DNA of 57,516 nt from the IMG/VR virus record IMGVR_UViG_3300032770_000008; one strand, given 5' to 3'. Source of the stretch: an uncultured virus (IMG/VR IMGVR_UViG_3300032770_000008) (Duplodnaviria > Heunggongvirae > Uroviricota > Caudoviricetes). The first letter of the stretch is position 1. Every line of letters begins with the position of its first letter. Shown here piece after piece: positions 2 to 29,029 of the stretch. The notes under the pieces were generated by a model. It worked only from the letters and a program-made list of their open reading frames with translations, did not search any database and had not been told where the DNA came from. A program made the position numbers and the translations under genes.

Positions 2-595
2 GCGTGGGCGCGGCAAGATCGCCACCTCCAGGCGTGGAGCGAGCACCAGCGCGACCGGCTGATCGCGCACCGGCGCGAGGTGTGGCGCGTGATCGCCGCC
101 GAGATCGCGCGGACGTACTCGACGATCCTGATCGAGGACGGCCGCAACGCGAACCAGACGATGCGCCTGCCGGAGATCGAGGGCTGGGAGCGGCCCGCGC
201 CCGAAGACGGCGATCCGTCGGACGGGCGCGACCAGCGGCGGACGAACCGCCTGGTCGCCCCCGGCGAGCTCCGCGACGCGATCGTCAAGGCGGCCCACAA
301 GACCGGCGCGAAGATCGAAGTCGAGCGCAGCGCGGGAACGACGAAGGAATGCGCGCGCTGCGGCCACACGCAGGAGCACGTCGACTTCCGCGCGCAGATC
401 ACGTATCGCTGCGAGGGCTGCGGGGCGATCGACGATCAGGACGCCAACGCGTGCCGGAACCTGCTCAAGCGACACGGGATCGCGGGCGGCCCGGTGCCGC
501 CGCGCGCGCCCAAGGTGCTCGCGCCGGCGAAGAGGCCGCCGGAGCTCGGCAATCACGGAGCGTCACACGCGGCAGAGACGTTCGCCGCGCCGTAG
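2..595 (+). CDS. cas12: Type V CRISPR effector, C-terminal part (Cas12m/V-U1-like, TnpB-derived RuvC + zinc finger); 5' end lies outside the window
   Basis: Frame is open from base 2: AWARQDRHLQAWSEHQRDRLIAHRREVWRVIAAEIARTYSTILIED (bridge helix + RuvC-II), APGELRDAI, TTKECARCG...YRCEGCG (zinc finger), DQDANACRNL (RuvC-III). Stop codon is 63 bp before a CRISPR array. Confidence 0.88.
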   Translation, partial: AWARQDRHLQAWSEHQRDRLIAHRREVWRVIAAEIARTYSTILIEDGRNANQTMRLPEIEGWERPAPEDGDPSDGRDQRRTNRLVAPGELRDAIVKAAHKTGAKIEVERSAGTTKECARCGHTQEHVDFRAQITYRCEGCGAIDDQDANACRNLLKRHGIAGGPVPPRAPKVLAPAKRPPELGNHGASHAAETFAAP

Positions 596-622
596 CGCGG
601 CAGGTGCTCGCGATCGGAGCTG

Positions 623-658
623 TATGATCGCGGCGTGACAACTGAATAGGATACTACT
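623..658 (+). promoter_or_regulatory. Short CRISPR leader / putative array promoter
   Basis: AT-richer patch with TATGAT (623-628) and TAGGAT (647-652); the latter ends 6 nt before repeat 1. Confidence 0.4.
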
Positions 659-1495
659 GTGATCGTGACTGCTCGGCAGGCTGACTGCCGAGACAAGGTG
701 ATGGCGTTCGCCGTGGAGGTCAACTTCCGCGAGTGATCGTGACTGCTCGGCAGGCTGACTGCCGAGACCGGCGAACTGCTCGGGCGCCGCGTACGCTGGC
801 GTTCGTGATCGTGACTGCTCGGCAGGCTGACTGCCGAGACGCATCGATGGTTCCGGTGTCGCGAAGCAGGAGCAAGGTGATCGTGACTGCTCGGCAGGCT
901 GACTGCCGAGACTCCAGTTTCGCGTTGCTGACGCCCGTGGCGACGAAGCCGTGATCGTGACTGCTCGGCAGGCTGACTGCCGAGACTATCCTGGCCGAAC
1001 GGGCGGCCCTCGTATCGATCCCGTGATCGTGACTGCTCGGCAGGCTGACTGCCGAGACAAACACCAAGCTGGCTAGAATTCGATTCTTAGGGGCGTGATC
1101 GTGACTGCTCGGCAGGCTGACTGCCGAGACTTCGGCGGCTTCGCGGCAAGGTCCCTGGCCGCTTTCGGTGATCGTGACTGCTCGGCAGGCTGACTGCCGA
1201 GACGGCGATCCATGTTAGCGCACGGTCGACGAGCCCAGGCGTGATCGTGACTGCTCGGCAGGCTGACTGCCGAGACGCAAGAACGGCTTGCCGCGCCGCG
1301 GGGTCTCGGCGGCGAGTGATCGTGACTGCTCGGCAGGCTGACTGCCGAGACCCCTGGGGACCCTCGAGCACAAGAACCGTGTCGAGTGATCGTGACTGCT
1401 CGGCAGGCTGACTGCCGAGACGCGTCTTGGAGGGGTAGGAATCCTCGTCGAGAGACATTGTGATCGTGACTGCTCGGCAGGCTGACTGCCGAGAC
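659..1495 (+). CRISPR. CRISPR array: 12 identical 36-bp repeats GTGATCGTGACTGCTCGGCAGGCTGACTGCCGAGAC with 11 unique spacers of 34-39 nt
   Basis: Repeats start at 659, 733, 805, 877, 951, 1023, 1095, 1168, 1241, 1316, 1386 and 1460. Each has the hairpin CTCGGCAG-GCTGA-CTGCCGAG. Orientation is inferred from the upstream effector, trailer-end decay and G-U compatible variants. Confidence 0.98.
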
Positions 1496-1710
1496 TTGCC
1501 AGGTCCGTCGCCCCCGTTCTCGGCGAGCTGACTGCCGAAACCGGCCGCCGGCCGTGCGTGTGGTGCTCATGATCGTACTTGTTCGGTGAGTTGATCGCCG
1601 AGACAGTGGGACCTTCCGCAGATCGTAGTTGCTCGGCGAACTGACTGCCGAGACGCAGAGTGGTCGATTGCACGTAAATCGCACTTGCTCGGCGTATTGA
1701 CTGCCGAGAC
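1496..1710 (+). CRISPR. Four diverged trailer repeats separated by short spacers
   Basis: Partial repeat at about 1516-1541; full-length variants at 1569-1604, 1619-1654 and 1675-1710; intervening segments about 20, 27, 14 and 20 nt. Confidence 0.9.
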
Positions 1711-1738
1711 CCGAGCTGGCGAACGTTTTTCGCTAGTC

Positions 1739-2872: not shown

Positions 2873-3087
2873 CAGTTGCCCTCTCGGCGGATCTTCGCCT
2901 CGGCGGCGAGATCGAGGATCGACTTGCCGCCGACGCGCGCGCCGCAGTGCGAGCACTGTCCGTCGACGTCGAAGCTGTGACCCCGCGCGGCGACGCAGCC
3001 GAGCCAGCGATCGACGGCCTCTGTCTTCGACGGATCGCCGCCGGCGGAGGCGATCGTGATCGCGAGCAGGCGACGCAGCGCGGACAT
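2872..3087 (-). CDS. Small zinc-finger hypothetical protein
   Basis: C...GH...CSHC motif; coupled to radA stop. Confidence 0.6.
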   Translation of the reverse strand: MSALRRLLAITIASAGGDPSKTEAVDRWLGCVAARGHSFDVDGQCSHCGARVGGKSILDLAAEAKIRREGN

Positions 3088-3983
3088 CAGTGAAACGGCT
3101 CCTCGTCCCAGCCGTCTTCATCCATCGGCTCGAGGCCCTCCGATCCCATGACGAAGTAGCCGCGCGACGTGGTGGCACCGAAGCGATTCTTGGTCGCGCG
3201 CAAGATCCGTTCGGCGCCCGCGCGTCGCGCGCCGACCTCGAGATCGAGCACGACATCGACGAGATGCCCGAGCGTCGCGGGTCCCGCGAGCAGACCCTCC
3301 TTGTCGACGTGACCGATGAGCCAGGTCGTGATGCCCTCGCCCTTGGCGAACTCGACGATCCGGCGCACGCTCTCGCGCGACTGCGCCGGCGATCCGGGAT
3401 ATCCCTTGACGTCCGAGGCCACGAGCGTGTGGATCGAGTCGATCACGATGACGCGCGGCTTGAGCGCGCGGGCATGCGCGATGATCTTGTCGACGTCTGT
3501 CTCGGCGGCCGGGTAGATCTTCCGGCTCGTCGCGCCGACGCGGTGCGCGCGCGGCGCGATCTGCTCGATCGATTCTTCCCCCGTCGCATACAGCGCCCGG
3601 AGATCGAGACCGGCGAGCATCTGCATCGCGAGCGTCGACTTGCCGGCCCCGGCCTGCGCGCTGATCACGACGACCGATCCGATGACGAGCCCGCCTCCCA
3701 GGACCGCGTCGAGCGGCGCCAGATTCGTCGGATCCCGCGGGTGATCGATCACCGTGATCTCGGAGAGCGGGACGAGCTTGGGAGGCTCTTCTGCGACGGG
3801 ATCTTCGAGATCCTCGTCGCGCCGCGGCGCGGGGACGGCCACGAGCTTCGGCACTGGCGGCGCCGACTCCTCCCGGAGCTCGAGATCGAACGCCTGGCAG
3901 CGCGTGCAGCGCGCCTGCCATGCGGCATGCGCGTAGCCGCACGCGCGACAGACGTAGCGGCGAGCTCGCGCGACGTCGCTCAC
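3087..3983 (-). CDS. radA: RadA/Sms-like ATPase lacking the C-terminal Lon-like domain
   Basis: N-terminal C4 zinc finger (CRACG...CTRC), Walker A AGAGKST, TGEES, Walker B VIVIDSI, GHVDKEG.LAGP, KNRFG; only 298 aa. Confidence 0.9.
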   Translation of the reverse strand: MSDVARARRYVCRACGYAHAAWQARCTRCQAFDLELREESAPPVPKLVAVPAPRRDEDLEDPVAEEPPKLVPLSEITVIDHPRDPTNLAPLDAVLGGGLVIGSVVVISAQAGAGKSTLAMQMLAGLDLRALYATGEESIEQIAPRAHRVGATSRKIYPAAETDVDKIIAHARALKPRVIVIDSIHTLVASDVKGYPGSPAQSRESVRRIVEFAKGEGITTWLIGHVDKEGLLAGPATLGHLVDVVLDLEVGARRAGAERILRATKNRFGATTSRGYFVMGSEGLEPMDEDGWDEEPFH

Positions 3984-6781: not shown

Positions 6782-7267
6782 TCATCGTCGCAGGCGCGTC
6801 TGACGTCGCCGCGCGATCCCGAGGCCGATCCCGATGCCCAACCCCACGAGCAGGAGCGCGCCGCCGAAGCCGATACCAGAGCTCGGAGCCGCCGGCGCCG
6901 GCGCTACCTTCGCGCGCGCGGCATCGAACGCCCGGATGGCCTCCTCCTGCGACAAGCGATCGTCGAGCGCCAGCTGCTCGAGCGCGGCCTGCCAACCGAC
7001 CTGCGCGCCGGCCAAGAACACGGCGCCCTCGCGCCCTTCGCGCGCCTCCTTGAGACGCGGCAGGATCTCGTCGAGGAAGCGCTTGCGCCGGACCGCGCGC
7101 GCGACGGTGTCCTCGCCGGCGATCTCGGGGAACAGCGCCAGGCCCTGAACCAGATCAACGATCTGGTAACCCGGCCACTGCGCTCCGCCGCCACCTCGAT
7201 CGATCTTGACGAGCGGCAGGACGGCTGGAACGACGTTCTGATTGTTCGCGATCAGGGGGACGAGCAT
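6782..7267 (-). CDS. C-terminally anchored membrane protein, paralog 1
   Basis: Near-identical N-terminus to the adjacent gene; C-terminal TM plus basic tail. Confidence 0.8.
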   Translation of the reverse strand: MLVPLIANNQNVVPAVLPLVKIDRGGGGAQWPGYQIVDLVQGLALFPEIAGEDTVARAVRRKRFLDEILPRLKEAREGREGAVFLAGAQVGWQAALEQLALDDRLSQEEAIRAFDAARAKVAPAPAAPSSGIGFGGALLLVGLGIGIGLGIARRRQTRLRR

Positions 7268-7272
7268 CGGCC

Positions 7273-7719
7273 CTATCCCTTGCTTCGCGCGCGAAAGAGG
7301 AGCGCCACGATCGCGATCGCGCCGACGACCGCGAGCGCCGTACCGAGTCCCGACGGGCGCGCCGCCGCGGCGCGCGCCTCGGCCGCACGAGCTCGTGCCT
7401 CGGCAGACGCCGTCCGTGCCTCGAACTCCTCGAGCTGCGCGAACTGACCGACCTGGATACCGGCGAGGAAGGCCGCGGCGCGCTGGCGCTCGCGGGCGTC
7501 GCGGATCGCGGGCAGTGCTTCATCGAGCCAGCGCGCGCGGCGCACGGCGCGCGAGACAGCATCTTCGCCGGCGATCTCGGGGAAGAGCGCGATCGCGGCG
7601 GAGATGTCGACGATCTCGTAGCCGGGCCAGCGCCGACCACCGCCGCCTCGATCGATTTTCACGAGCGGCAGCGACGCCGGAACGACGTTCTGATTGTTCG
7701 CGATCAGCGGAAGAAGCAC
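7273..7719 (-). CDS. C-terminally anchored membrane protein, paralog 2
   Basis: PLIANNQNVVPA.LPLVKIDRGGGG..WPGY...ALFPEIAGED shared with paralog 1; TAGAAT 9 nt upstream. Confidence 0.8.
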   Translation of the reverse strand: MLLPLIANNQNVVPASLPLVKIDRGGGGRRWPGYEIVDISAAIALFPEIAGEDAVSRAVRRARWLDEALPAIRDARERQRAAAFLAGIQVGQFAQLEEFEARTASAEARARAAEARAAAARPSGLGTALAVVGAIAIVALLFRARSKG

Positions 7720-7757
7720 GTTTCGTCGATTCTACCGCCACCGCGGCAAGATCGCGA

Positions 7758-8531
7758 TCACGCGTCGCCCGGAGGAGCGGGCGCCTCGCACTTGCACAGA
7801 CTCATCATGATCACGCCGGGTTTCGTCGGATGCTCGACGTGCTTGTACAGATCGCCGCAGATCGGGCAGCGTTCGGGCACGCCCGGCGGTGAGATGAATC
7901 GGATCTTCGGTGATGCCTCGGGACGATTTCGCGTCATCGCGACCACGCGGGCCTCCTCCGGCGCGATCTCGAGCTTCGGCGGGGGGACCGCCTTCTTTCT
8001 CGCGACCGTCTCGGCCACTGCCGCCACATCGTCGCGCAAGCACCGCTCGGCGCCGTGCCGGTAGCCGGGGTCGGTCGGGTGTCCGCACGCGCATGGCCGC
8101 GCCTCGTCGGCGGCTCCGGTGGCGCGGATGATCCGCGGATTCGCAGGCGGTGGTGGCGGCAGGGGCAGAGGTCGCCGCTGCGCGCATCGCGCGGATCCGT
8201 GCTCGAAGTCCTCCGCACCCGGATTTCCGCACGCGCAGGGTCGCGCGACGATCGGAGCCTCTTCGACGCGCGCCGCCAATCGCCGCGTCGCCGCCGCGGT
8301 AAAAAAGTCGGCGTCGAAGGCGATCACGTCGACGATCCCGACCACACCGGAGCTCGATACGAGCATCCGCACGTCGACGCACTTCATGCGCCGGCGCTTC
8401 GTCGGATCCTCGATCCCCGAGATCCACAGGTCGTCGCCGAACCCGACCGGAACGCGATCGACCGACGCCAGATCGACGCGGACGGCTCGCGCCCCCGCCG
8501 CATCGAGAATCTCTTCGACGACGAGCCGCAT
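7758..8531 (-). CDS. Hypothetical protein with repeated C-x-C...H...C metal-binding motifs
   Basis: ARPCACG...HG..RC occurs twice, plus CPICG...CKC; TAAACT 7 nt upstream of the ATG. Confidence 0.65.
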   Translation of the reverse strand: MRLVVEEILDAAGARAVRVDLASVDRVPVGFGDDLWISGIEDPTKRRRMKCVDVRMLVSSSGVVGIVDVIAFDADFFTAAATRRLAARVEEAPIVARPCACGNPGAEDFEHGSARCAQRRPLPLPPPPPANPRIIRATGAADEARPCACGHPTDPGYRHGAERCLRDDVAAVAETVARKKAVPPPKLEIAPEEARVVAMTRNRPEASPKIRFISPPGVPERCPICGDLYKHVEHPTKPGVIMMSLCKCEAPAPPGDA

Positions 8532-9379: not shown

Positions 9380-10453
9380 CTAGAGACCGAGCCACGTGGG
9401 ATTGTCGAGGTACCAGCGCACGGTTTTCTCGAGCGACTGCTCGAGCATCATCGGGCGTTTCCAGCCGAGCTGCCCGATGAGCTCGTCTTTCATCGCGTAG
9501 CGGAGATCATGCCCGGGGCGGGAGGCGTGCCACGACACGAGCTCGCAGTGGAGCGGCTTGCCGACGAAGCCGGCGATCATCTGCGCGAGGTCGAGATTCG
9601 AGATTTCGCGCTCGCCGCAGACGTGGATCTTGCGCGGCATGTCTTCGACGATGAGAGTGCGCTCGCCGGCGGGGCGCGAGCTGGAAGCCCCAGCGTCGAG
9701 GCGCATCAAGAACGCGAGCGCGTGCGCGAACGTCCGGCAGTGCAGGTAGAACCTCGTGCCAGAGCGCGTCTGCGTCGGATCCGCGTGGATGGTCATCACC
9801 TCGCCGCGCAGCGCAGCGCGAATGCACTTCGGCACCATTTTTTCGAAATGTTGCCTCTCGCCTACGAGGTTCATCGTATTGACGATCGTGATGGGCAATC
9901 GGTACGTGTTCGCGTAGCTCAGCGCGACGCACTCGCCACTGGCCTTCGCGGCCGCGTAGGGATTCGCCGGCCGGAATGGCGCGTGCTCATCGAAGCCGGC
10001 GACGTCGTCGCCGAACGCGGCGGGGCCGTAGACCTCGTCGGTGCTCACGAGGAAAGCGCGACGCAGCGACGGAAGCGATCGCAGCCACCAGAGCAGGTGA
10101 TGCGTGCCGATCACGTTCGAATGGAAGAACGGTAGTGGATCGATGATCGAATTATCGACGTGCGTCTCCGCAGCCGCGTGGATCACGTAGTCGATCGCGC
10201 CGATCTCGCGCACGACTCCCTCCGGGATCGGCTGCGAGAGATCACAGCCGAGCACGCGGACGCGCCGATCGTCGTACGCCTGGATGTCGCGCAGGCGATC
10301 GAAGCCGGCTGACGCGTAGGTCATCTTGTCGAGCACGACGAGATCGGCGTCGGTGCTCTTGAGGAAATGCTCGACGAGGTGCGAACCGAGGAAGCCGCAG
10401 CCTCCCGTGATGAGAATGCGCATGCCGCCGTATGTACCCGAGACGTACGACAT
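9380..10453 (-). CDS. rfbB: dTDP/NDP-glucose 4,6-dehydratase
   Basis: ITGGCGFLG, DKMTYAS, HAAAETHVD, STDEVYG, PYAAAK, RPGHDLRYA; alternative start at 10423. Confidence 0.9.
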   Translation of the reverse strand: MSYVSGTYGGMRILITGGCGFLGSHLVEHFLKSTDADLVVLDKMTYASAGFDRLRDIQAYDDRRVRVLGCDLSQPIPEGVVREIGAIDYVIHAAAETHVDNSIIDPLPFFHSNVIGTHHLLWWLRSLPSLRRAFLVSTDEVYGPAAFGDDVAGFDEHAPFRPANPYAAAKASGECVALSYANTYRLPITIVNTMNLVGERQHFEKMVPKCIRAALRGEVMTIHADPTQTRSGTRFYLHCRTFAHALAFLMRLDAGASSSRPAGERTLIVEDMPRKIHVCGEREISNLDLAQMIAGFVGKPLHCELVSWHASRPGHDLRYAMKDELIGQLGWKRPMMLEQSLEKTVRWYLDNPTWLGL

Positions 10454-10460
10454 CGAGCGG

Positions 10461-10820
10461 CTAGTAGTTCCCCGCCTTGGTGATCGCGCCGACCAGCGCG
10501 GACGCCATCTCGTTCGCGAGCGCGTCCCGGTTGGTGAGCATCTTCTCGAACGCCGCGGCGGCGAGCTCGCGCATGCGCGCACGGATCTCGTCGGTCGCGA
10601 TCATCTCCCGCACGACCTCGCGTGCGAGGTCGAGAACCGCGCCCTCGAACGCGAGATGGATCTCGGTCTTGCCCTGGCTATAGCCGTAGGTGCCAGATTG
10701 CTTCGGCGCCACGAGCGCCGCGAGCGCGGCGCGGATCAGCTCTTCCTTCTTCTTGTCGTCGAGCGCCTTGTACATCGCCTCGACAACAAGGGCCTTCATG
10801 GTGGTGTCTTCGGTAGTCAC
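10461..10820 (-). CDS. Hypothetical helical protein (119 aa)
   Basis: GGAG RBS; fits gene packing. Confidence 0.7.
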   Translation of the reverse strand: MTTEDTTMKALVVEAMYKALDDKKKEELIRAALAALVAPKQSGTYGYSQGKTEIHLAFEGAVLDLAREVVREMIATDEIRARMRELAAAAFEKMLTNRDALANEMASALVGAITKAGNY

Positions 10821-21197: not shown

Positions 21198-22436
21198 TTA
21201 CGCCGCTCCCTTGGGCCACGCCTGTGCGAGTCCCTGCGCGATGAGCTTCTTGGCCATCGGCCCGGTCAGGAACGCCTCCGGGATGCGCGAGCTCGCCCAC
21301 GCGATCGCCTGCGCGAGCGTCGGCGCCGCCACGGGTGCCGGCGGCGCGCCAGCTACCGCGGCCGGTCGCGCGACCGCGGCCGCCGCCGCGACGAACGCAC
21401 CCTCGATCTTGCCGCCGATCGGCACACCGAGACCCGTGCAGGGATCCGGGCCGACTTGCGCGTGGTACTGCCCGTTGTCGCCCGCCGACACATCGGCGAA
21501 GCACGCCTCGTTGCCCCACAGCTTCGCCGGCAGCGCGCTCGATCCGAGCTTTTGGCCGAGTGCCGCGAAGAGTCCGGCGTAGAGCGGCGCGACCGCGCTC
21601 GTTCCACCGACCACCTGCGGCGATCCGCCGTAGTAGATCTGGTACCCCGTGTTCGGATCGGCGTTCGCCGCGACGTCGGGCACCATGCGGCCCGGCCCGC
21701 TCGGCGCGCCGCCGCTCTTCTGCCACGCCGGCATCGGGAACACAGTCGAGTAGCCCCCACCCGAGCCGTCGCCGCTGGCGCTTCCCGGCTGATCGTTCCA
21801 CACGCTTTCGCTCGAGCGCGTCTTGTTCGTGCCGCCGCAGCCGATGATCGACGGGCAGCTCGCGGGCACGTCGACGTTGGCCGCCGTCGGTCCGCCATCC
21901 GAGCTGTCGTTGTCGCCGGATGCCGCGAACACGATCATGCCGGCGGCGATGGCCTCGGACGCGGCGAGCTCCATGTCCTGCGCGGCGGCCGCGCCCCACT
22001 GCGCCTCGTCGGCACCCCACGAGATCGAGCACACGTCGCAGCCGTCTTTGAGCGCCGCGCGCACCGCGGGCGCGATGTCGTTCGCCCAATACACGCGGAT
22101 CGTGGCGGCTTTCCCGGTCGCGACGAAGTACGCCGCGGCCGCGACCTGGATGTCGAGCGCAACCTCGCCATCCGCGTCCCCGCCCGGGGCGTTCATCGTG
22201 CCGTCGACCGACACGTCCATGATCGACGGTACCGGCTGACCGATCGAGTTGAAGTACGCCTGCATGTCGGCGGGCGTCCAGCCGCCGCCGAGCTCGACGA
22301 TCGCGATCGTGCCCCCGCCGGGCGCGCCGGTCGGCCACTGATACGCCGCGCAGAGGTCGGGAACCGACCAGGGACCCGTGCCCGACGCGCGCGGCCGCGT
22401 CGACTTGGCCTTCTTGAAGTAGGGATGAGCTCTCAT
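21198..22436 (-). CDS. Sedolisin/kumamolisin-family (S53) serine-carboxyl peptidase, catalytic domain only
   Basis: IAIVELGGG, GEVALDIQ (Glu/Asp), SISWG, ASGD, R.VPDVAANADP, GGTSAVAP (Ser), DPCTGLGVP. Confidence 0.92.
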   Translation of the reverse strand: MRAHPYFKKAKSTRPRASGTGPWSVPDLCAAYQWPTGAPGGGTIAIVELGGGWTPADMQAYFNSIGQPVPSIMDVSVDGTMNAPGGDADGEVALDIQVAAAAYFVATGKAATIRVYWANDIAPAVRAALKDGCDVCSISWGADEAQWGAAAAQDMELAASEAIAAGMIVFAASGDNDSSDGGPTAANVDVPASCPSIIGCGGTNKTRSSESVWNDQPGSASGDGSGGGYSTVFPMPAWQKSGGAPSGPGRMVPDVAANADPNTGYQIYYGGSPQVVGGTSAVAPLYAGLFAALGQKLGSSALPAKLWGNEACFADVSAGDNGQYHAQVGPDPCTGLGVPIGGKIEGAFVAAAAAVARPAAVAGAPPAPVAAPTLAQAIAWASSRIPEAFLTGPMAKKLIAQGLAQAWPKGAA

Positions 22437-26270: not shown

Positions 26271-27533
26271 CTACGATCCGTCACCGGACAAGTTGTAGAG
26301 CTGCGCCGTTCCCGATGATCCCGCGCCGGCTGCCCCACCAGTGCCGAACGAATTTCCGGCCGCTCCACCTGGCACGGTCGTGGTGCAGCCAGCGGCGCGA
26401 TGCGAGTAGATGAAGATCACCACACCACCACCACCACCACCGCCACCACTCGCGCCAGTACCACCCGCGAGAACTCCGTCAGCGCCGGCGCCGCCGCCGG
26501 ACGCGATGAGCAACGTGCCGGCACATTGGTTCGCGCTCACGAACGCGATCCCGCCGCCACCGCCACCTCCTCCTCCAGTACACGCACCACCAGCACAACC
26601 GCCACCACCGCCGCCCGTGCCGTAGAGATCCCACTGATTACCGTACGAGTCATAACGACCGCTCCAGCCACCAATCGCATCGAAATATCCGACGTTGACG
26701 GACGGATTAGCGATCGAACCCCCTGTGCCGCCCGTGCCGGCGCCGGTCGTGCCTCCGCCGCCGCCTTGTCCGAGGCCCGCCCCGGGTGAGCCCGCTGGGG
26801 AGGCGCTCTGCGCGGGCCACTGCGGGATCGCGCCGGGATTCGAGCTACCACCGTTTCCGGCGCCAGGACTCATCGCCCCCGCGCCGCCCGCGCCGTTGCA
26901 TGCCTGATAGTAGTGCGTGTTCAGGCCACCGCAGTGTCCTCCGAGCGCGCCTGAGCCAGGAAATCCGCCGTTCGTGATCGTCGCGCCCGCGCCGCCGCCC
27001 GTCAGCGTGCCGTACACCATCACGCGCCAGTTGTCCTCGCGCACGATCACGCCTGCGGCGACGGTCATGTTGAGCGGCGCGATGTCGCGTTGGAGCGTGT
27101 ACGTCGAACCCGACAACGTCGCGCCGCACACCGGCGTGGCGACGCCGTCGAAGTTGCACGTGCCGTCGCCGCCATCCGCGTAGTAGACCGAGCTGTTCGT
27201 TCCAGGGCTCGTCGCGATCGTTCCCGTCCCCGTGATCGGATTCGGCGTACACGTGAGCCCCGTGCCGCACGTGATGCTCGTGACGCCGGCAGGTCCGCCT
27301 GCGCCGATCTTCGTCCAGCTCGTATTGGTCGCGCCACTCTTGTAGTAGAGCGATGGCGAATCCGTCCGAACGAGGAGTTGGTTGAGCGGCGCCGACATGC
27401 CCGGCGCGATCGTCGGATCCGCGCTCGAGAACCAGTACAGGCCCACGCTCGGCTGAGGACCATCCGCGAGCACGTACGTAGCGATCGCGACGATGCCGAG
27501 CGCGATACCGAGTTGGAGAACCGTCTTCTTCAC
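26271..27533 (-). CDS. Exported glycine-rich fibre-like protein (420 aa)
   Basis: Signal peptide MKKTVLQLGIALGIVAIATYVLA; GDGGDG-like motif; long GGGGGG tracts. Confidence 0.75.
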   Translation of the reverse strand: MKKTVLQLGIALGIVAIATYVLADGPQPSVGLYWFSSADPTIAPGMSAPLNQLLVRTDSPSLYYKSGATNTSWTKIGAGGPAGVTSITCGTGLTCTPNPITGTGTIATSPGTNSSVYYADGGDGTCNFDGVATPVCGATLSGSTYTLQRDIAPLNMTVAAGVIVREDNWRVMVYGTLTGGGAGATITNGGFPGSGALGGHCGGLNTHYYQACNGAGGAGAMSPGAGNGGSSNPGAIPQWPAQSASPAGSPGAGLGQGGGGGTTGAGTGGTGGSIANPSVNVGYFDAIGGWSGRYDSYGNQWDLYGTGGGGGGCAGGACTGGGGGGGGGIAFVSANQCAGTLLIASGGGAGADGVLAGGTGASGGGGGGGGVVIFIYSHRAAGCTTTVPGGAAGNSFGTGGAAGAGSSGTAQLYNLSGDGS

Positions 27534-29029
27534 GATGACCTCCGCGCGAGTCTCGCCGCGTTTTCCATCTCGATCAGTTCCTTGACCGCCTCGCCGTGAC
27601 TCGTGCTGCGCAGCGCGGCCTGCGCATCGTCGATCGCGCGCCGAAGATCCTCGGCGCTGATCCCCCGCGGCTTCTTCCGTCCCTTCTCGATGTCACCCAG
27701 GATCGCGAGCGTCGACGCGCGCTCGACGACGCCTGCGATCATCGCGCCCGAGACGAAGTCGCGGAGTCGGAGTAGGAGGCCCTCACCAACATCGCGGATC
27801 ACGCGACCATCGTCGAAGATCTCGGCGATCGCACCGTCCGCGAGGTCGCCGTGCACGGGCCGGCCCCGGAGATGGATCGCGAAGATGGCGCGGCAATCCT
27901 CCCGCGTCGGGCGCGTGACCCGCACCTTGCGATCGATGCGACCGTCGCGCGTGACCGCCGGATCGAGCATGTCGGCGCGATTGGTGGCGAGCAGGACCAT
28001 CGCCGCGTTCTCGTCGAGACCGTCCATCTCCGCGAGGAACTGCGGGACGACCGTGGCGTTTAGCGTGTTGTTCGTGCCGCGATCGCGCGCGCCGAGGAGC
28101 GCGTCGCATTCGTCGAGAAACACGATCGCCGGGTACCCGCACACCGCGCGATGCTCGCGCGCGGCCGCGAACACCTGGCGCACGCGCTCTTCGGTCTTGC
28201 CGAAGATCCCGTGGAGGAGCTCGGGACCCTTCACGTAGATGAAGCCCGTCGACGCGGTCTCGCCGTGCGCGCGGGCGAGCGAGGTCGCGGCCGCCTTGGC
28301 GATGAGCGTCTTGCCTAGCCCCGACGCCCCCTCGAGCAGCACGCCCTTGCACGGCTGCTTGGCGTAGGCAGCGAACAGCTCGGGATGCGCGTGTGGCAGC
28401 TCGATCGCCTCGCGCAGCGCGGCCTTGGCCTCTTCTTGGCCGCCGATGTCGTCCCATGACACCGACACCTTCGGCCGGAACGCGTAGTCCGCGGGGGGCT
28501 TGCCGAGCGAGCCGATCACGAACGTGAGCGACGCGTCGAGGATCACGCGCTCGCCCTCCTGGTGATCGAACGAGCTCCGGTACGTCTTCTTCTCGGATAG
28601 GTATTCGGCCTCGATCATCCCGCGTTCTTTGTCGAATGCCTTGACCACCACGATCGTCCCGGTCGGCACGGCGTCGCGGATCACCTCCACGGCCGCCATC
28701 GTGTTGCGCGTCGTGAGCACGCGATCGCCGACGCGCGCCTCCTTGATCCGCTGGACATCGAGCGCGTTGCCAGGCCCGAACGAGAGGCTCATCCGATCCT
28801 CGCGGAGCTCGACAACCGTCGCCATCAGGAGCGGCTCCTTCTTGATCCCGGCGAGGAGCTCGTCGGCCTCGCGGACGCGCGCGCGGAGCTCCGCGAGCTC
28901 GCTGTAGCGCTCGTGGCGCGAGGGCGGATCGGGGGTGTCAAACCCCGGGCGCACATAATCGCGATCGTCGCTCGTCCCCTGGTGAACGACGCGGCCGGAA
29001 CGATCGAATACCTTGACGGAGACGGGCAT
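27530..29029 (-). CDS. arc: Proteasome-type AAA+ ATPase (ARC/Mpa/PAN-like)
   Basis: Coiled coil + OB-like N-region; WDDIGG, GASGLGKT, VKGPELL, FLDECDALL, VVPQFLAEMDG, ATNRADMLDPAV.R.GRID, DFVSGAMI. Confidence 0.85.
   Translation of the reverse strand: MPVSVKVFDRSGRVVHQGTSDDRDYVRPGFDTPDPPSRHERYSELAELRARVREADELLAGIKKEPLLMATVVELREDRMSLSFGPGNALDVQRIKEARVGDRVLTTRNTMAAVEVIRDAVPTGTIVVVKAFDKERGMIEAEYLSEKKTYRSSFDHQEGERVILDASLTFVIGSLGKPPADYAFRPKVSVSWDDIGGQEEAKAALREAIELPHAHPELFAAYAKQPCKGVLLEGASGLGKTLIAKAAATSLARAHGETASTGFIYVKGPELLHGIFGKTEERVRQVFAAAREHRAVCGYPAIVFLDECDALLGARDRGTNNTLNATVVPQFLAEMDGLDENAAMVLLATNRADMLDPAVTRDGRIDRKVRVTRPTREDCRAIFAIHLRGRPVHGDLADGAIAEIFDDGRVIRDVGEGLLLRLRDFVSGAMIAGVVERASTLAILGDIEKGRKKPRGISAEDLRRAIDDAQAALRSTSHGEAVKELIEMENAARLARRSS

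Follow-up and report, generated by a model that had tools for sequence, protein, structure and literature searches.

The IMG/VR record IMGVR_UViG_3300032770_000008, a 57,516-nucleotide (nt) stretch of DNA from an uncultured virus that was analysed whole and is termed the window here, begins inside a gene for a Cas12m protein, the effector of the type V-M CRISPR systems. Directly behind the gene follow a leader, a uniform array and, at the leader-distal end, four diverged repeats that are set apart by very short spacers (Table 1). These four units, which an original prediction had described as candidate regulatory CRISPR RNAs (crRNAs) carrying truncated guides, are the subject of this report. 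Repeats are numbered from the leader (R1 to R16), and each spacer (S) carries the number of the repeat that precedes it, the guide lying 3' of its handle (R12-S12, R13-S13, R14-S14 and R15-S15).

Table 1. Features of the cas12m locus and recognisable neighbouring genes in the 57.5-kb window. Identity and stem pairs (G-U included) are relative to the canonical 36-nt repeat.
Feature	Position	Strand	Remarks
cas12m, 3' end	2..595	+	197 codons; reading frame open at window start; Pfam PF07282, E=6.4e-10
Leader	596..658	+	63 nt, locally A+T-richer; between cas12m and first repeat
Main array	659..1495	+	12 identical 36-nt repeats, 11 spacers of 34-39 nt
S12 guide	1496..1515	+	After perfect R12; 10 nt long in register, 20-23 nt when counted to where R13 is retained
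R13	1506-1541 in register; repeat-like only over last ~26 nt, 1516..1541	+	5'-truncated, most damaged; 22/36 identical, 6/8 pairs
S13 guide	1542..1568	+	27 nt; behind damaged handle R13
R14	1569..1604	+	Hairpin of -10.8 kcal/mol; 25/36 identical, 8/8 pairs
S14 guide	1605..1618	+	14 nt; below the 17-bp Cas12m2 heteroduplex, above the 12-bp intermediate (PMC10442227, available part)
R15	1619..1654	+	Best-kept variant; 28/36 identical overall, 21/24 over last 24, 7/8 pairs
S15 guide	1655..1674	+	20 nt; equals positions 10-29 (D-arm) of class II tRNA genes
R16	1675..1710	+	Last repeat unit; 25/36 identical, 7/8 pairs
9-bp hairpin	1715..1737		Within the minimum-energy fold; between array end and stop codon (1739-1741) of a convergent minus-strand reading frame
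RadA/KaiC-like ATPase	3087-3983		
Sugar epimerase	9380-10582		
Subtilase	21198-22436		
AAA ATPase	27530-29029		

The 197-residue C-terminal part of the effector that is encoded in the window carries a TnpB/Cas12 zinc-ribbon end. The promoter of cas12m and the DNA upstream of the gene lie outside the window, and the full-length protein (P0001, 655 amino acids) was found by identity on a contig of 119,516 bp. Among solved structures P0001 best matches the Cas12m of PDB entry 23vw_A (residues 13-614, E=3.9e-59), and it also aligns with Cas12m2 (8hio_A; residues 28-613, E=1e-25). By these alignments P0001 is a type V-M effector, Cas12m, homologous over its full length. Its residues H281 and R282 align with H269 and R270 of Cas12m2 and are both invariant across 32 relatives, and its D-E-D triad is intact in the alignment.

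The properties of this family set the terms on which the array is to be read. According to the available part of PMC11013384, Cas12m proteins with D-E-D, H-D-D and N-D-D triads bound DNA and left it uncut when tested, the tested members use T- or C-rich protospacer-adjacent motifs (PAMs), and acquisition genes are typically missing from V-U1 to V-U5 loci. The structural account of Cas12m2, likewise consulted in part (PMC10442227), describes a guide-target heteroduplex of 17 bp with a 12-bp intermediate, a repeat whose first 7 nt are disordered, and recognition of a 6-bp stem, of the adjoining G:A pair and of the final C(-1), the latter via His269 and Arg270. Among the 30 open reading frames (ORFs) downstream of cas12m in the window, Pfam revealed no cas1, cas2 or cas4.

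The canonical repeat of the main array forms a hairpin of 8 bp, the loop of which measures 5 nt and which precedes an AC tail (-15.9 kcal/mol). Since hairpin and AC stand at the end of the repeat, the crRNA is expected on the plus strand with its handle 5' of the guide, as in Cas12 systems that work without a trans-activating crRNA (tracrRNA). No further repeat or anti-repeat copy was found outside the array anywhere in the window. The locus thus presents the crRNA traits of type V-M, namely the stem with its AC handle, the His-Arg pair and no tracrRNA-like copy in the window. Scanning of positions 500-2100 yielded no consensus sigma-70-type promoter, a scan that says little for an element of 66% G+C, and no intrinsic terminator was called there either; the hairpin at 1715-1737, which has no T run, may nevertheless mark the end of transcripts. 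Rfam placed nothing on positions 500-2000 except a sub-threshold fluoride-riboswitch match (15.2 bits; gathering score, 34). A single public run, a DNA run, contains this DNA, and in it the trailer is identical and without variants. The assembler contig of that run joins position 657 to 1459; this join is an assembly artefact that collapses the 12 identical repeats and their spacers, not a deletion variant.

The variant units end at 1541, 1604, 1654 and 1710. The numbers given for them in the original prediction all hold: 12 perfect repeats are followed by 4 variants behind gaps of about 20, 27, 14 and 20 nt, the first of which measures 10 nt in register and 20 nt if R13 is taken to start at 1516. 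As no other repeat-like copy exists in the window, the four units are certainly true homologues of the repeat and not chance matches. The 3' sequence GCCGAGAC is retained in three of them, R14 to R16, and R13 has GCCGAAAC instead. R13, the 3' end of which reads GAAAC, carries a T instead of the pre-stem G and forms no repeat hairpin when folded alone. All four units end in the AC tail, and R14 to R16 also keep the pre-stem G and the 6-bp stem core. AC tail and pre-stem G are read base-specifically in Cas12m2, and the units look like crRNA units of the system. As originally described, R14 keeps all eight pairs: its stem arms, TTCGGTGA and TCGCCGAG, combine an AG/CT to GA/TC swap with two G-U pairs, and the other units keep 6-7 pairs. 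Within R14 one pair that its sister units lack is regained, and one G-U has turned into G-C. R16 is followed by non-array DNA leading into the hairpin at 1715-1737.

We interpret the four units, with about even confidence, as the old, leader-distal end of a type V-M array, which has been worn by deletions and parts of which are probably still usable. The trailer units would represent an older subtype of the repeat, and the uniform block of twelve a younger, derived form. With no known spacer-acquisition genes, the units would not be renewed and would be left to drift and deletions. Cas12m would require approximately the last 24 nt of the repeat (stem, pre-stem G and AC tail) and about 17 nt of guide. 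Given so short a functional core, a deletion that takes away the distal part of a spacer and the beginning of the following repeat would be tolerated, and it would leave behind a short unit with a recognisable handle. R12 with S12 and R15 with S15 would probably still give loadable crRNAs, R14 with its 14-nt S14 might perhaps do so, and R13 is probably dead. Any unit still alive would act as the other units of the array do, binding PAM-adjacent DNA and blocking transcription or replication without cutting.

Degenerate distal repeats are common in CRISPR arrays. Pure neutral decay, according to which the units are dead remnants without any functional guide and the likeness of their handles reflects the limited time since they were last copied, is the alternative to be taken most seriously, and we regard it as somewhat unlikely. 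It draws on the pattern of changes, which had been called non-random in the original prediction, a claim less well founded than the homology of the units. R14 retains 8 of 8 pairs despite six stem changes (P=0.002 for random substitutions), yet 10 of its 11 differences from the canonical repeat are transitions, and with transitions only the probability rises to P=0.10. Pair retention in R13, R15 and R16 is not significant (P=0.35-0.90). In the last 10 nt a raw count of 3 out of 44 changes gives P=8e-5, a figure in which shared changes are counted repeatedly; if each shared state enters once, 20 independent changes are left, and the last 10 nt hold 3 of these (P=0.15). At columns 9, 10, 11, 20 and 21 the variants have derived states in common, and R15 and R16 are identical at 30 of 36 positions, so that the variants constitute a repeat subtype of their own rather than four independent decays of the canonical repeat. 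Selection on the variant units is not proven by sequence alone. Against decay without function stand the AC tail in four of four units, the pre-stem G in three of four and the pair regained in R14, including the step from G-U to G-C.

Relatives of the effector provide a second measure of what the units have kept. An alignment search identified at least 20 loci on viral (IMG/VR) contigs with 25-51% identity (L063-L082). The Cas12m-bearing viral contigs include a 192-kb and a 90-kb genome, both complete and with terminal repeats, and in most of these relatives the array lies directly behind the gene. The plasmid-borne Cas12m proteins are more distant (approximately 26-32% identity to P0001), and an alignment scan of genome contigs from the GTDB (173 pattern hits) produced no Cas12m relative. 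A sister of the present array was not found either: the exact repeat core had no match in viral contigs; a degenerate repeat pattern gave 62 single matches in metagenome contigs, none of them array-like, with one locus holding two weak matches 369 nt apart; and among GenBank phages the array hit five records, the best at E=1 and none usable.

The same pattern of short spacers and variant repeats occurs in the arrays of these relatives, where spacers below 30 nt make up 17 of the 137 interior ones and are present in 7 of 11 arrays. Short spacers are mostly array-internal and often lie beside near-perfect repeats. In the closest relative, L063 (array at 6957-8380), this applies to most of the nine short spacers (14-25 nt) among 21. 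One of its 24-nt spacers occurs three times (7347, 7994 and 8253) with slight differences between the copies, and a 35-nt spacer recurs as a 25-nt copy without the PAM-distal end. Short spacers that sit next to near-perfect repeats, some of them (in L063) even duplicated with point changes, speak against neutral decay; in the Cas12m family, short does not mean dead. They also do not fit a bank confined to the trailer, as originally proposed, since short spacers and variant repeats are scattered through the relatives' arrays. The end of the L079 array carries a short spacer and a 5'-damaged repeat that resembles R13. Variant units account for 11 of 15 repeats at L064:6019-7003, 29 of 35 at L075:6848-9291 and all 8 at L118:5412-5951; the repeats of these three arrays vary mainly in the loop and keep the stem and a GAC/AAC tail, with compensatory changes.

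Stem-preserving swaps also occur within the arrays of relatives. L081 contains CCCGAC/GTCGGG as well as CGCGAT/ATCGCG, and L064 contains GGGAT/ATCCC as well as TGGAT/ATCCA. Across 34 repeats from 11 arrays, 81.4% of cells of the 6-bp stem are paired, double changes occur in six of six pairs, and the covariation score is 0.525; shuffles give 0.193, none of 500 reaching the observed value, and slid partners no more than 0.17. The pairs that have changed in R13, R15 and R16 are the two loop-side pairs and thus lie outside this co-varying stem. A covariance model was built from the same 34 repeats and without any sequence of the window; it is weak, as an unrelated site in the window also scores 16.9 bits. 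R16 obtains 18.7 bits, the best score in the window, R15 16.9 bits and each of the 12 canonical repeats 14.2 bits, whereas R13 (9.7 bits) is at noise level and R14 is absent at E values up to 10. By this model the trailer repeat type is nearer to the family form than the main repeat, and the uniform block is suggested to be a derived repeat form that spread recently. That R15 and R16 outscore the canonical repeat runs counter to mere decay, which in turn gains from the scores of R13 and R14 and from the absence of targets for S12-S14 in the searches described below; R14, stressed in the original prediction, is the least typical one by the family model.

The guides were compared with the window, with viral and genome contigs and with tRNA sequences. 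For the 16 guides the window, beyond which the cas12m promoter lies, yielded no target, whether flanked by a PAM or not. The first 14-17 nt of S13, S14 and S15 have no match in the window at up to 2 mismatches, and the 10 in-register nt of S12 match 32 times at this threshold, as compared with 43 times for the reversed control. In viral contigs neither the 20-mer of S12 nor the first 22 nt of S13 has an exact match, and a 24-mer of main spacer 6 has none, which means that no PAM could be derived.

S15 behaves differently from the other guides. Exact copies of its 20-mer are present on two viral contigs and on two genome contigs, although one of the genome records is the same as a viral one. 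The sites lie in the tRNA-Tyr of a complete 45.6-kb phage, in a long-arm tRNA of a phage tRNA cluster (contig of 34% G+C) and in the tRNA-Ser region of a bacterial metagenome-assembled genome (MAG). Within the phylum of this MAG the first 17 nt are found in 5 of 401 genomes, all sites being tRNA-Ser genes, as compared with none for the reversed control. The match always begins at tRNA position 10 and is preceded by GTG at six of seven tRNA sites and by TTG at one. S15 has the sense of the tRNA and hence would pair with the template DNA strand, not with the tRNA itself. The other 15 guides of the window are at least 3 mismatches away from each of 71 tRNAs, none of 79 spacers of the relatives matches these tRNAs, and the window contains no tRNA genes. 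We considered whether 1655-1710 is a decayed tRNA gene and rejected this, as similarity is confined to the D-arm stretch and neither an anticodon nor a T arm comes after it. S15 is thus a real biological sequence, taken from the tRNA gene of a rival phage or host. The match fits an ordinary old spacer with a conserved target and a regulatory guide alike.

Two readings build on S15. In the first, which we consider unlikely, the short units are minimal Cas12m guides under selection in a non-acquiring array, and at least one of them, R15 with S15, directs Cas12m to the D-arm DNA of class II tRNA genes (Ser, Tyr, Leu type) in the host or in rival phages. Transcription of these genes would be shut off, tRNA supply would be controlled in the course of infection, and the guide would be kept at the old array end since its target hardly evolves. 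In the second, more unlikely still, the units form a dedicated regulatory bank similar to CreR/CreA, which steers Cas12m to promoters or RNA genes of the element or its host, for instance to silence class II tRNA genes via S15 or to repress cas12m itself. CreR RNAs with degenerate repeats do repress cas promoters in types I-B, I-E and V-A (10.1101/2023.03.10.532045, available part), and huge-phage spacers against host genes for transcription and translation have been reported (PMC7162821, available part). In agreement with such a bank, S15 is a stretch of tRNA genes that is conserved in bacteria and phages; a match exists for only one of the four guides, however.

Further evidence on regulation comes from relatives whose own contigs could be searched. 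The first full-length spacer of L081/L082 matches its own genome at 36 of 36 positions in two assemblies, one of them complete (90 kb). The target (L115:2988-3023, minus strand, equal to G005:42988-43023; G410:35875-35910, minus strand; 5' flank CACCCC) is intergenic, follows the large terminase gene and stops 10 nt short of the start codon (ATG) of a 392-codon gene that resembles tail-fibre or head-decoration genes. Phage Cas12m arrays can therefore hold self-directed guides, which renders regulation through phage Cas12m guides plausible in principle, and this spacer is a candidate case of self-regulation in nature through an effector that only binds. It is, however, an ordinary full-length, leader-proximal spacer and not a short distal one, and this speaks against a bank at the array end. 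Among short spacers of relatives, 11 of 12 have no match in their own contigs (four, one of them 100% complete) at up to 2 mismatches. The last spacer of G004 (9-13 nt), the complete 192-kb phage of L079, has 16 inexact self-matches as compared with 2 for the reversed control, none exact. In the same phage (L096:2475, plus strand) spacer 4 nearly matches its own genome: one of its first 16 nt is mismatched, and the match extends to about nt 33. This spacer may be aimed at a related phage, the carrier escaping via the seed mismatch. The short spacers of L063 have no target in their own 95-kb contig, and the thrice-repeated 24-nt spacer is found only in its own array among viral contigs.

The properties of the effector likewise bear on a regulatory bank. 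An effector that binds without cutting and pairs over about 17 nt would give short guides no separate standing, and they would not be needed to avoid cutting. As tested Cas12m relatives leave their bound DNA uncut, all guides of the array are presumably non-cleaving, and a non-cleaving class apart from the defence spacers, as originally envisaged, would not exist. Nor are the guides truncated in a functional sense: 20 and 27 nt are full length with respect to a 17-bp heteroduplex, and only the 14-nt guide is short. Moreover, the CreR genes of type V-A are located upstream of cas12a and not at the far end of an array (10.1101/2023.03.10.532045, available part). From the regulatory proposal there remain the crRNA-like appearance of the units and the tRNA match of S15; a separate regulatory set is unsupported.

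That R15 and S15 form a homing guide of the kind used by CRISPR-associated transposons (CASTs), with an atypical repeat and a short tRNA spacer directing insertion beside a tRNA gene, is highly improbable: delocalized crRNAs with a partly matching repeat and a short spacer do home near tRNA genes or glmS in V-K and I-F CASTs (PMC11656645, available part), S15 matches a tRNA gene and Cas12m, like Cas12k, binds without cutting (PMC11013384, available part), but the match lies inside the tRNA, in the D-arm, not beside it, and the window holds no tRNA gene and, among the 30 ORFs compared with Pfam and the 25 compared with PHROGs, no Tn7-like, Mu-like or integrase family.

The interpretation of the units as a worn but partly usable array end has to be weighed against several points. 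Transcription, processing and loading of the units are inferred, and so is the order of events. Hairpin retention and sparing of the 3' end lose significance once shared ancestry and transition bias are considered, R13 scores at noise level and R14 goes unreported in the (weak) family model, and no sister array was found in viral or metagenome contigs by which conservation of the units could be gauged. S12, S13 and S14 have no target in the window or in the 71 tRNAs, nor do S12 and S13 have one in the viral contigs, and S14 with its 14 nt falls short of a 17-bp duplex. If the PAM were TTN, as in two solved relatives, most tRNA sites of S15 would not be bound. Finally, the D-E-D triad of P0001 is intact, and its presumed failure to cleave is taken from relatives only.

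If the worn-end interpretation is correct, array decay sheds dispensable parts first and leaves behind natural minimal crRNA units, which would help in designing compact Cas12m guides and in interpreting further worn arrays. Of greater weight, if confirmed, would be the tRNA identity of S15 and the self-directed spacer of L081/L082, which together would render natural gene regulation by a binding-only CRISPR effector of phages directly testable.

The remainder of the window offers little further guidance on the carrier. From 1739 to 57516 nearly all of the likely genes are encoded on the minus strand, in convergent orientation to cas12m, and the recognisable ones include methyl- and glycosyltransferases in addition to those listed in Table 1. 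No family could be assigned to 24 of 30 ORFs by Pfam and to 20 of 25 by PHROGs, and within these sets no capsid, terminase, integrase or other phage hallmark was detected in the window. We take the carrier to be a large mobile element, probably a phage, the latter designation resting on the viral relatives of the effector, given that no hallmarks were found in the window. The same 30 and 25 ORFs include no Tn7-like, Mu-like or integrase families (tnsB, tnsC and tniQ among them). To our knowledge, Cas12m has no association with transposases.

Among known systems, V-K and I-F CASTs share with this locus a delocalized crRNA with an atypical repeat and a short guide, a match to a tRNA gene and, in V-K, a Cas12 protein that only binds; unlike in CASTs, transposition genes and an adjoining tRNA gene are absent from the window, and the match falls inside the tRNA gene. 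CreR/CreA of types I-B, I-E and V-A resemble the four units in having degenerate repeats that retain the handle and a short effective pairing. The available part of 10.1101/2023.03.10.532045 describes CreR/CreA as mini-arrays that stand alone next to cas promoters and for which a partial match to a PAM-flanked promoter site has been demonstrated. The units discussed here, in contrast, are contiguous with the far end of an array, and the window contains neither a solitary copy nor such a target. The logic of partial pairing would not apply either, the effector here being presumably non-cutting.

The Cracr arrays of phages are similar in that multiplexed units with degenerate repeats are carried by a phage. 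According to the available part of 10.1101/2024.10.29.618823, these phages have no effector and mimic host CreR/CreA to silence the cas genes of the host, whereas the units of this locus follow the element's own cas12m and share its repeat. Host-directed spacers are also on record for huge phages, including a case with an inactive Cas14 (PMC7162821, available part), and a preprint of September 2026 calls its own case the first phage Cas12m (10.64898/2026.09.14.751636, available part).

With an ordinary degenerate terminal repeat the trailer has in common its leader-distal position and a divergence that grows with the distance from the uniform block; it differs in comprising four units, in spacers cut to 10-27 nt and in that two units are nearer to the family consensus than the main repeat. 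The type V-M arrays of MmCas12m2, GoCas12m and MsCas12m, which are found on plasmids and prophages, agree with the present one in effector family, 36-nt repeat, 3' hairpin and AC tail; further points of agreement are that no tracrRNA-like copy turned up, that the array follows the gene immediately and that the repeats are heterogeneous. In the plasmid array of MsCas12m all eight repeats depart from the array consensus, and the spacers measure 29-41 nt. The parts of the Cas12m literature surveyed held no description of V-M array units with short spacers. Unlike the plasmid examples, to which its protein is approximately 26-32% identical, the locus described here resides on a probable phage or large element, and its array differs from known V-M arrays in combining a perfectly uniform block with a tail of very short spacers (10-27 nt).

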